A program made the position numbers and the translations under genes. Source: a virus (Duplodnaviria > Heunggongvirae > Uroviricota > Caudoviricetes). From it: a stretch of 37,721 bases of DNA. This document shows positions 16,652 to 17,742 of the stretch, in pieces; within the stretch, counting starts at the first letter, position 1; the number at the start of each line of letters is the position of its first letter. The notes below the pieces were generated by a model. The model was not told where the DNA came from and made no database searches. It saw nothing but the letters and a program-made list of their open reading frames with translations. The stretch is taken from positions 1-37,721 of IMG/VR virus record IMGVR_UViG_2778261460_000005, one strand, 5' to 3'.

Positions 16652-16831
16652 ATGAAAAAAGAAGGCCATGGGTTTATCTCGGTTGTTAACTCCATCTCAG
16701 AAGCTAAGAACTGGTTTGTGGAAAATGAAATACATAAGGAAGGCGATGTGCTAGAGCTGGTAGTTGTTAAAAGCAGCACTGAAGGTGAATCATGCACGCT
16801 TGATCTCAAGTTACAGACAGCTCAAAAATGA
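16652..16831 (+). CDS. hypothetical 59-aa protein upstream of the protease gene
   Basis: Hand-translated, one codon below the track cutoff: [63 protein letters not shown] lies about 10 nt upstream. The two minus-strand track ORFs here look like its shadows. Confidence 0.5.
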
Positions 16832-16867
16832 TACGGGCTAATTGATGTATTGAATATTTCGAGCGTA

Positions 16868-16888
16868 AATTGATGTGACACATCAATT
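16868..16888. repeat. perfect 10-bp inverted repeat AATTGATGTG-A-CACATCAATT (operator-like), with an extra half-site at 16840-16848
   Basis: Read directly. It lies 57 nt upstream of the protease ATG. A direct copy, AATTGATGT, lies 28 nt further upstream. Confidence 0.8.
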
Positions 16889-16944
16889 ATTCTGGTGGAT
16901 GAATTCATTATGATTTTTTCACACACCGGTATCGGAGCAAATCG

Positions 16945-17685
16945 ATGCATCAAACTCTAGCCAACGCAACTTTTCAGGTCATTGCAGGGGATTCTCGTGG
17001 TAGTGGGTTCAGCTTTATGCGAGAAGATCTGGTCGTAACCAATTTTCATGTTGTCGCCGCCTGCTGTAACTTGCAGAATCTGCGTCAAATTAATCATGTT
17101 AACCTTCAGACTGAATCTAATGAGCATATAGAAGCTCAAATATTGTACATTGATGGTGACAACGACTTTGCGATTATGCGGTTGCAATCACCGCTTCCTG
17201 CCGGGAGAACAGTACTTCAACCATCCGTAGGATTTACTCCAACTCGAGGCAAAAAGTTAATCTTTGCCGGGTATCCGCATGGGCTGCCTCAATTGCTTAC
17301 GAATGAAGGGATTATTTCCGCCCCTCTGGAAAGTGGGCGTTTTGCTCTTGATGGAATGGTTAATGGTGGAAATTCAGGCGGTCCAATTATTGACCGGGAA
17401 ACGGGAGAAGCTGTAGGCATTGTTACTCAACGTCGATACATTCTGCCGCCTGATGCGCAGCAGCTCTCTAATGAAGTTGCTCAGCTTCGCGGCTATTTGG
17501 CGCAGGCAGCACAGCAAATGTCAGTGGAAGTCATGGGGGTTAACTTTGGACGAATGGCAGATATGTTCAGTCGCTCACTGCAAATGGTTAATGAAATGTT
17601 GAATCTTAATGCCAATCCTGGCATTGGGACTGGTTTCTCGTTAGAACCAATCGTAAATGCAGTTAATTCACTTCCTCAACATTGA
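16945..17685 (+). CDS. cytoplasmic trypsin-fold (S1/Trypsin_2-like) serine protease with a ~90-aa helical C-terminal extension
   Basis: 246 aa. The catalytic triad is readable: TNFHVV (H35), DNDFAIMRL (D74), GGNSGGPII (S144). There is no N-terminal signal peptide. The gene is AT-rich. Confidence 0.8.
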   Translation: MHQTLANATFQVIAGDSRGSGFSFMREDLVVTNFHVVAACCNLQNLRQINHVNLQTESNEHIEAQILYIDGDNDFAIMRLQSPLPAGRTVLQPSVGFTPTRGKKLIFAGYPHGLPQLLTNEGIISAPLESGRFALDGMVNGGNSGGPIIDRETGEAVGIVTQRRYILPPDAQQLSNEVAQLRGYLAQAAQQMSVEVMGVNFGRMADMFSRSLQMVNEMLNLNANPGIGTGFSLEPIVNAVNSLPQH

Positions 17686-17714
17686 TCAAGCTGCGATTTA
17701 GTAAAAGACATAGG

Positions 17715-17742
17715 GCCACTGGCAAGTGCGAGTGGCTTTTCT
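17715..17742 (+). terminator. intrinsic terminator after the protease gene
   Basis: GCCACT-GGCAAGTGCG-AGTGGC followed by TTTTCT. Confidence 0.65.

Follow-up and report, generated by a model that had tools for sequence, protein, structure and literature searches.

A PDZ-less HtrA-type serine protease with a variable loop L2 insert: a candidate conflict protease of enterobacterial prophages

A stretch of 37,721 nucleotides from a tailed virus (Caudoviricetes; positions 1 to 37,721 of the IMG/VR record IMGVR_UViG_2778261460_000005), hereafter called the window, carries a small cassette between its lysis genes and its terminase genes, in which an open reading frame (ORF) of 59 amino acids is followed by the gene of a 246-amino acid trypsin-like serine protease. 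The comparisons presented below show this feature to be real and well delimited, and its function is read from genomic context only. Sequence and fold comparison place the protein as a single-domain serine protease of the HtrA type (S1C-like), devoid of PDZ domain and signal peptide, in which a hypervariable helical hairpin is predicted to occupy loop L2, beside the active site. We tentatively favor a role for it as a prophage conflict protease, serving in phage-versus-phage conflict and probably anti-phage, together with a late-expressed modulator, and would put this reading somewhat short of an even chance.

The protease and its fold

The preliminary description of this DNA had recognized an S1/trypsin-like protease with a complete catalytic triad, and this assignment stood up to profile and structure comparison. 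The 246-amino acid protein matched the Pfam family Trypsin_2 over the full length of the profile (positions 1-144), with an E-value of 1.4e-20 and a score of 74.9 bits (cutoff 27.6), and the codons of the triad are H35 (cat, 17047-17049), D74 (gac, 17164-17166) and S144 (tca, 17374-17376). All three residues, as well as the GNSGGP motif, were invariant in an alignment of 33 homologues of 34-91% identity. The AlphaFold2 (AF2) model, with a predicted local distance difference test score (pLDDT) of 85.5, showed the strand pattern expected of two six-stranded β-barrels. Its best Foldseek matches were MucD, HtrA1 and DegS-deltaPDZ at E-values of about 1e-12 (probability 1.00 for HtrA1, DegS and MucD), a profile search of the PDB retrieved HtrA1 of M. 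tuberculosis at 1e-15, and a fold search of BFVD returned generic trypsin-like matches only. The gene and its parts are as follows.

16934-16937, plus strand: GGAG ribosome-binding site, 7 nucleotides before the protease ATG and conserved in the alignments
16945-17685, plus strand: protease gene, 246 amino acids, ATG start
17437-17607, plus strand: two-helix hairpin insert in loop L2 (residues 165-221), hypervariable and Gln/Met-rich
17608-17682, plus strand: return strand and C-terminal helix (residues 222-246), with the invariant motif NAN.GIG.GF

A signal peptide had been reported as missing, and no basic or hydrophobic signal-like segment was indeed found at the N-terminus: there is no lysine or arginine in residues 1-10, and the maximum Kyte-Doolittle(15) hydropathy is 0.47. 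Since the N-terminus is not signal-like and the conserved fold begins immediately, its first helix and strand starting at residue 2, the protease is predicted to be cytoplasmic. No PDZ domain was matched in Pfam, and the chain ends 14 residues past the last barrel strand. Among the NCBIfam equivalogs, the protein scored far below the respective cutoffs for DegP (47.6 versus 416 bits), MarP (52.7 versus 250) and DegS (28.1 versus 423).

Overall, the protein is, by these sequence criteria, a single-domain, PDZ-less and signal-less HtrA-type protease. It shares with HtrA, DegP, DegS and MucD (MEROPS S1C) the chymotrypsin double barrel, the H-D-S order of the triad, the GNSGGP motif and the terminal GIG.GF strand, but differs from them in having neither signal peptide nor membrane anchor nor PDZ domain, in a hairpin of about 57 amino acids that replaces the short L2 loop, in its cytoplasmic location, and in being carried by prophages and mobile elements. 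It is thus not a member of the HtrA family proper, as it fails the two defining features of that family, namely the PDZ domain and export.

A hypervariable hairpin in loop L2

The protease had been described as carrying a helical, Gln/Met-rich C-terminal extension of roughly 90 amino acids. The helical nature and the composition of this part were borne out, as residues 165-221 contain 12.3% Gln and 10.5% Met, but its terminal position was not. In the AF2 model, two helices (residues 169-191 and 201-222) follow directly after the strands that bear the catalytic serine, after which the chain re-enters the fold as the NAN.GIG.GF strand; the 'extension' is therefore an insert in loop L2. The return strand itself (residues 227-232) was modelled at a pLDDT of about 95 and is followed by the C-terminal helix typical of the chymotrypsin fold, and residues N222, A223, N224, G226 and G230 are invariant among the 33 homologues. 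We take this strand to be the counterpart of the 'GIGFAIP' strand of HtrA. In the predicted structure, then, a helical hairpin of about 57 residues is inserted in loop L2, a wall of the S1 pocket.

This hairpin is by far the most variable part of the protein. Identity to the window protein in the core (residues 1-164) and in the insert was 88 versus 51% for homologue P0016, 64 versus 22% for P0048, and 54 versus 9% for P0073, while mean column entropy rose from 1.49 in the core to 2.29 in the insert and was as low as 0.61 in the return-strand motif. Despite this divergence, the length of the insert is conserved across homologues, and so are the residues that flank it (R163 nearly invariant, R164 invariant, and the NAN motif). 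At the nucleotide level, blastn homology between the window and the alleles of prophages L002 and L003 (comparison loci are given by L numbers) ends at 17441, i.e., codon 166, and sliding identity to L003 falls from 95% over the first 240 nucleotides through 70-80% in the middle to about 50-65% across the insert, while the Buttiauxella allele retains 85-93% identity to the window through the insert. The contrast in identity between core and insert and the breakpoint at codon 166 mark the gene as an apparent recombination mosaic, in which insert and tail have been exchanged relative to the core. Core and insert divergences were correlated with each other (Mantel r=0.62, p=2e-4).

HtrA proteases switch between states through order-disorder transitions of the loops L1, L2, L3 and LD, and an insert in L2 would thus be ideally placed to gate the S1 pocket. 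The constant length, conserved flanks, hypervariable helices and recombinational exchange are more readily explained by a part in specificity or sensing than by a passive linker.

Anatomy of the cassette and its control region

Both ORFs were found as previously delimited, and the cassette indeed lies between the lysis genes and the small terminase gene, terS. The remaining features of the locus are listed below.

15644-16093: Rz (Phage_lysis), left flank of the cassette
16306-16651, plus strand: leader, common to all E. coli copies of the cassette
16652-16831, plus strand: small ORF, 59 amino acids, ATG start
16832-16944: intergenic region of 113 bp, under purifying selection on DNA
16840-16888: three exact AATTGATGT half-sites, one as a direct copy (16840-16848) and two as a perfect 10+10 palindrome, AATTGATGTG-a-CACATCAATT (16868-16888)
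16899-16913: near-invariant block ATGAATTCATTATGA, -10-like; no other part of the intergenic region is as well conserved (consensus over 28 distinct cassettes)
17715-17745, plus strand: intrinsic-terminator-like hairpin, with a GCCACT/AGTGGC stem (17715-17736) followed by TTTTCTATT
18388-18939: terS (Terminase_2), right flank of the cassette

The cassette had been called AT-rich, and it is moderately so: its G+C fraction is 0.406 in the small ORF, 0.363 in the intergenic region and 0.457 in the protease gene, compared with 0.497 for the window and 0.523 for the large terminase gene, terL.

The region between the two genes is better conserved than the synonymous sites on either side of it. Over the 28 distinct cassettes its mean identity was 84%, against 71% and 50% at third codon positions of the flanking genes, and in divergent pairs of cassettes it was 76%, against 51% and 44%. 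The three half-sites are the only exact copies of AATTGATGT in the window, and in L002-L004 and in the Buttiauxella locus L011, a copy that lacks the small ORF, their arms are conserved and the center is variable. From this pattern the repeats look like an operator. For the -10-like block ATGAATTCATTATGA, no matching -35 element was found. An RNA element was considered and rejected, as RNAalifold on 12 of the regions gave -2.6 kcal/mol and no compensatory pairs; a search of 14500-18500 against Rfam found two tRNAs only. To judge from these alignments, the conservation acts on the DNA and not on an RNA.

At the other end, the protease gene had been credited with a terminator of its own, and it does have one in the form of a hairpin and T-run (folding energy -22.1, z-score -1.7), which a stock scanner missed because the loop exceeds 8 nucleotides. 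A GC-rich hairpin with a T-run is found 3' of the protease gene in 23 of the 28 distinct cassette variants, built from at least five unrelated stem sequences. Within a Q-antiterminated operon, we infer that a terminator makes sense only for transcripts that start from an autonomous promoter. The order of control region, protease gene and terminator is, as read from the sequence, the classical layout of a moron.

The DNA that precedes the cassette has a history of its own. Homology to L002-L004 by blastn begins at 16306, and the 95 bp 5' of the small-ORF ATG are near-identical in four prophages, with one mismatch. The leader contains the relic of an o-spanin-like lipoprotein gene (16393-16620), of which the in-frame TAA at 16501-16503 is conserved in four E. 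coli prophages; the leader 5' of the small ORF is thus evidently the scar of an o-spanin-like gene. L114, L116 and L117 have intact versions, of 79-81 amino acids, 5' of the protease gene, and an o-spanin-like reading frame is likewise present in the Enterobacter kobei locus L006. At the junction 16256-16306 the window lacks the Rha-family regulator gene that sits there in prophages L002-L004 and L152-L159.

The small upstream protein

It had been proposed, in the preliminary description, that the 59-amino acid protein might be an inhibitor or sensor partner of the protease, to be judged in part by whether it is conserved and co-occurs with it. The conservation and the co-occurrence are both clear. 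Between divergent alleles the ratio of nonsynonymous to synonymous substitution rates (dN/dS) was 0.15-0.19 at a dS of about 1.4, showing that the small ORF is a real protein-coding gene, and a profile search found 73 clusters of the family in Escherichia, Klebsiella, Citrobacter, Enterobacter, Leclercia and Buttiauxella. Of 20 places sampled, 17 have the small gene 113 bp 5' of the protease gene. With three small proteins taken as representatives, the protease followed in 8/8, 6/6 and 3/6 places, the three exceptions being instances of the small gene alone. The two genes occur together in each of the 29 complete E. coli genomes with the protease, and in 24 of 29 loci on viral contigs a homologue was detected by tblastn at the same position, beside proteases down to 53% identity. 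The small protein is restricted to prophage contexts.

The idea of a dedicated partner fared less well. The small gene is missing beside the Buttiauxella protease, which is 88% identical to that of the window, and also in Pantoea, Enterobacter and several viral contigs, and a comparison of neighborhoods across the family found it with none of the non-enterobacterial proteases. Moreover, the alleles of the two genes do not co-vary, as the divergence of the small protein was unrelated to that of the protease core and insert (Mantel r=-0.06 and -0.04, p>0.5).

These observations bear directly on a toxin-antitoxin-like arrangement for addiction or abortive infection, in which the protease would be the toxin and the 59-amino acid protein its obligatory inhibitor. 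The close adjacency and co-occurrence of the genes in Enterobacterales and the purifying selection on the small gene would suit it, as would the solitary small gene of three Klebsiella prophages, reminiscent of an orphan antitoxin, and in IetAS there is a precedent for a toxin that is a serine protease (PMC13069673). However, the protease stands alone in the enterobacterial cases just named and in all non-enterobacterial members, with no allelic co-variation; in addition, the 113-bp gap contains a control region of its own, unlike the translational coupling typical of toxin-antitoxin pairs. We therefore regard this arrangement as improbable.

The small, acidic protein had no match in Pfam or the PDB, and its AF2 model was of low confidence (pLDDT 62), with only an amphipathic β-hairpin at residues 34-56. 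Such a hairpin, the one confident part, raises the thought of a protease-effector module of the Pepco/EACC1 type, in which cleavage would license the small protein, otherwise latent, as a pore-forming effector. Defence proteases do often adjoin small latent effectors (10.1101/2025.11.14.688446). The match is nevertheless poor, as the small protein resembles no Pfam family or PDB chain, is missing from most of the protease family and is modelled with low confidence, and as the known modules fuse a sensor to the protease, which here is a single domain; we consider this version highly improbable. The wider class of protease-effector modules (MBL, alpha/beta-hydrolase, Pepco, EACC1) was rejected on the same grounds, there being no conserved neighbor. 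A 76-amino acid variant of the small protein occurs without the protease in L166, L168 and L171 (3501-3731), directly before DUF1441/GpA terminase genes.

A cargo slot in enterobacterial prophages

In Enterobacterales, the protease gene always comes after the lysis cassette, from which a Rha gene may separate it, and before the packaging genes. What follows it varies widely: a Terminase_2/TerL/DUF1073 module in the window and in the SCU-171 prophage; a P22 gp3/Terminase_6/P22 portal module in other prophages; a lambda Nu1/GpA module, in a prophage that has its own S49 head protease; and further modules of the DUF2280/Terminase_3, HNH/Terminase_4/TerL and DUF1441/GpA types. The presence of at least five unrelated packaging and head modules behind the cassette excludes a morphogenetic role, and the family also occurs outside phages, in agreement with the earlier view of the protease as accessory cargo. 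A head-maturation protease (S49, S78, U35 and similar) was rejected likewise, since the gene lies upstream of terS rather than between portal and capsid, and is not co-inherited with the head module.

The junction is not peculiar to this cassette. About 350 bp after Rz are common to about 200 P22-like phages, which carry Rha, KilA-N, a GIY-YIG nuclease or an annotated anti-CRISPR at this place; such varied cargo shows the junction to be a cargo hotspot. In lambda, the slot holds bor, which encodes an outer-membrane lipoprotein on the opposite strand. The cassette shares with bor and other lysis-to-terminase morons the slot and the same anatomy of control region, gene and terminator, and their products are unrelated.

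A few observations on neighboring genes may be added. A second protease moron, a Clp-fold serine protease of the SDH family, lies between the Q antiterminator and the holin in cassette-bearing lambda-like prophages (L003, 2247-3242 on the minus strand; L152, L153, L155, L157 and L159). In the decaying prophage of E. coli PSS-11 (L083, 1471-3291), an IS3 element is inserted in the 5' part of the protease gene and a second copy lies beyond the intact small ORF. In the window itself, two tRNA genes (14673-14825) separate the Q antiterminator gene from that of the holin; in the near-identical prophage of SCU-171 they are annotated as Asn and Thr.

Distribution and contexts outside Enterobacterales

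A word-based search found 105 clusters of proteases of about 245 amino acids, and an exhaustive profile search found 60 clusters at E<=1e-30 among 1.84e9 representatives. Proteins of 255-270 amino acids whose match extends over the insert form a sister tier, and in a few giant multi-protease proteins only the core is matched; in P0084, P0087 and P0112 a SEC-C zinc-binding motif is appended C-terminally to the protease domain. Members were recorded in Enterobacterales, Salinisphaera, Acidithiobacillus, Pseudohongiella, Pseudomonas, Arcobacteraceae, Deferribacteraceae, Pirellulales, Thermoguttaceae, Bacteroides, Limibacterium, Lysinibacillus, Defluviitaleaceae and Anaerolineae, and a search of plasmid proteins added one haloarchaeal plasmid member beside an IS6 element. 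So patchy a spread suggests horizontal transfer of the family. The protease is present on 32 viral contigs of IMG/VR and in 29 of 5426 E. coli genomes, and is encoded in none of 50,697 sequenced phage genomes; given the E. coli frequency, this absence from isolated phages is not significant.

No neighbor was found to be conserved across the whole family, and outside Enterobacterales the protease stands alone. Several of its surroundings are nonetheless suggestive. In Bacteroides (L020), it lies 13 bp downstream of a type I HsdR with HsdM/S; in L009, it adjoins a PifA-like KAP NTPase (PADLOC, 7e-69); and in two unrelated lineages, Pirellulales (L016) and Pseudohongiella (L007/L015), it lies directly downstream of ThsB-like TIR proteins on the same strand. 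The ThsB-like genes are at 4959-5942 of L016 and 3970-4896 of L007/L015, and in Pseudohongiella a membrane protein of 304 amino acids lies between; from this arrangement, the TIR protein and the protease may form one system. Elsewhere the protease is flanked by IS110 and an HNH protein (L012), resides in integrase/AlpA islands at smpB (L008, L084), forms a reverse-strand moron between the tail tube and sheath genes of a myovirus-like prophage (L025), or lies at the end of a P2-like prophage (L087).

An alternative is that the protease has no part in conflict at all and is a cytoplasmic quality-control or regulatory enzyme that hitch-hikes on mobile elements as it spreads horizontally. The HtrA family does serve primarily in protein quality control, and several contexts (L013, L017, L021, L023, L024) are uninformative. 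Yet the distribution is very patchy and bound to mobile elements, the insert is hypervariable and recombining, defence genes are repeated neighbors, and inactivated copies exist, such as the one with the IS3 insertion in strain PSS-11, all of which make a housekeeping role of this kind distinctly unlikely.

Comparison with known systems

The preliminary description had suggested searches against protein profiles and defence-system models. The former, as shown above, confirmed Trypsin_2; the latter, with PADLOC, gave domain-level matches and no defence-system model. These matches were to RT-Protease_XI (2e-13), Avs1b (7e-6) and PDC-M35A (8e-5), and also to LmuA, and the alignments were limited to the protease segment of each profile, e.g., positions 339-486 of 506. 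The query has no reverse transcriptase (RT), STAND or Lamassu domain, and the corresponding systems were thus rejected. Matches in PHROGs were partial only, and to families of unknown function.

The resemblance to these systems is thus one of the catalytic domain. Avs1/Avs2, the RT-protease of type XI retrons, the LmuA protease and HamMAB share the same type of protease domain, a cytoplasmic location and an association with phage conflict, but in those systems the protease is joined to a large sensor (STAND, RT, Hachiman) and has a co-evolving effector as its partner. The protease described here is a single domain of 246 amino acids with no conserved effector, and its sole candidate sensor is the hairpin within the loop. 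To judge by sequence, what appears to be new is the minimal architecture: a trypsin-like protease of the defence type that stands alone and has its variable module within a loop, together with a small partner family that seems undescribed.

Lit of prophage e14 had been named as a precedent. It is a prophage-encoded cytoplasmic protease and abortive-infection effector, but a zinc metalloprotease. A Lit-like protease was rejected here, as its fold is unrelated to the Ser/His/Asp chymotrypsin fold, and Lit serves as a working analogy only, for a cytoplasmic protease encoded by a prophage.

In its layout, the cassette resembles the Tai/Ati pair of phi80, in which the lysogen expresses an immune gene and a small counter-defence gene is part of the late operon under Q control (PMC11364771); Tab and anti-Tab of JBD26 follow a similar two-gene logic (PMC10884400). 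Tai/Ati occupies the same slot, just upstream of the packaging module, and its small partner has the late-operon orientation (PMC11364771). It is to be noted that Tai blocks tail assembly and is not an enzyme. The two are likened by layout, and no sequence relationship is to be expected. Between the protease terminator and terS, the window also contains, on the minus strand at 17867-18360, the genes of a DUF6953 protein and a DUF2158/YodC protein, which run antisense to the late operon; by analogy, they share the 'noncontiguous operon' geometry of phi80 tai and are candidates for lysogen-expressed genes.

A proposed role and its main rival

The reading that we favor, a conflict protease of the prophage, would work as follows. 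The moron would be an autonomous accessory transcription unit inserted among the late genes of lambdoid and P22-like prophages. The lysogen would express the protease, in a latent state imposed by the conformation of the L2 hairpin. Contact of this hypervariable hairpin with a protein of an invading phage would switch the protease on or direct it to a substrate, and the infection would be aborted through its cleavage of phage or host proteins. Since the small gene precedes the control region and lacks a promoter of its own, the 59-amino acid protein would be made by Q-dependent late read-through only, and could act as a modulator or self-immunity factor in the lytic cycle of the prophage itself, like Ati for Tai in phi80. 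It is the timing of expression, the latency, the trigger, the substrates and the role of the small protein that we infer in this scheme. A sharper form of it, which we hold to be unlikely, is a minimal single-domain immune receptor-protease, in which the hairpin senses phage proteins and allosterically completes the S1 pocket, and the late 59-amino acid protein is an anti-protease that confers self-immunity; sensing and killing would then be united in one domain, and the logic of Tai/Ati would be realized by proteolysis.

A number of observations weigh against the favored scheme. The first concerns expression. Sigma70-like sites in 16000-18450, counted on both strands, numbered 0, against 4.7 +/- 2.2 expected from shuffled sequences, and manual inspection found only matches of the 8/12 type, which are not conserved across variants; with no such site detected, expression of the protease in the lysogen remains a proposal. 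(The absence of such sites from 16000-18450 is notable in its own right, as the region holds two convergent gene pairs.) In all the enterobacterial prophages examined, moreover, the protease gene points the same way as the late operon, which equally suits a function in the lytic phase, and it differs in this from tai, which is antisense to the late operon (PMC11364771). Cognate binding of the Tai/Ati kind also predicts matching of alleles, which was not seen for the protease and the small protein, and the small protein is dispensed with even at 88% identity, in Buttiauxella. The hairpin, for its part, was modelled at moderate confidence only (pLDDT 59-73), and a fast-evolving insert could simply be weakly constrained. 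No family-level model for the protease exists in PADLOC, NCBIfam or PHROGs, literature searches found no experimental work on the family, and no description of it was found in Vassallo et al., DefensePredictor and the domain-centric discovery paper, searched for protease-related terms. Finally, the slot also carries what by sequence is counter-defence cargo. In the Klebsiella prophages L169 and L170, a gene of the Acb2/Tad1-hairpin family lies directly downstream of the protease (4856-5116), and an annotated anti-CRISPR is among the cargo of P22-like phages. The Acb2/Tad1-hairpin family is a family of anti-CBASS and anti-Thoeris sponges.

Much of this evidence can be claimed by a role of the protease in the phage's own lytic cycle, where it would be expressed late under Q antitermination and would cleave defence or stress factors of the host, the small protein being an independent anti-defence cargo. 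The co-orientation in all enterobacterial prophage loci, the failure to find a promoter-like site, the adjoining Acb2/Tad1-like gene, the anti-CRISPR in the slot and the lack of allele matching are all in its favor, and small acidic proteins are typical anti-defence factors. Such a lytic-phase or counter-defence role is a serious rival to the conflict model, if on balance an unlikely one. A conserved terminator after the gene would be pointless for antiterminated late transcription, and the control region upstream is conserved as well. Members of the family occur in chromosomal contexts other than phages, beside restriction-modification, PifA-like and TIR genes, and the L025 member is a reverse-strand moron. 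Late expression would also be badly timed for counter-defence, and the family is in none of the sequenced phage genomes, a weak point given its rarity.

Significance

Proteases of the trypsin type increasingly appear as common executioners of bacterial immune systems, and those characterized so far are fused to large sensors and act through a neighboring effector. If the conflict reading is true, a free-standing HtrA-like protease that varies only in an insert beside its active site would represent a much simpler immune design, and the prophage would be another one that pairs a weapon with late-expressed self-immunity; if the protease acts in counter-defence instead, it would be a rare proteolytic anti-defence factor. 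The lysis-to-terminase junction of enterobacterial prophages is a hotspot whose cargo escapes discovery methods based on defence islands. For the HtrA proteases at large, the conflict reading, if true, would offer a tractable model for the control of activation by loop L2.

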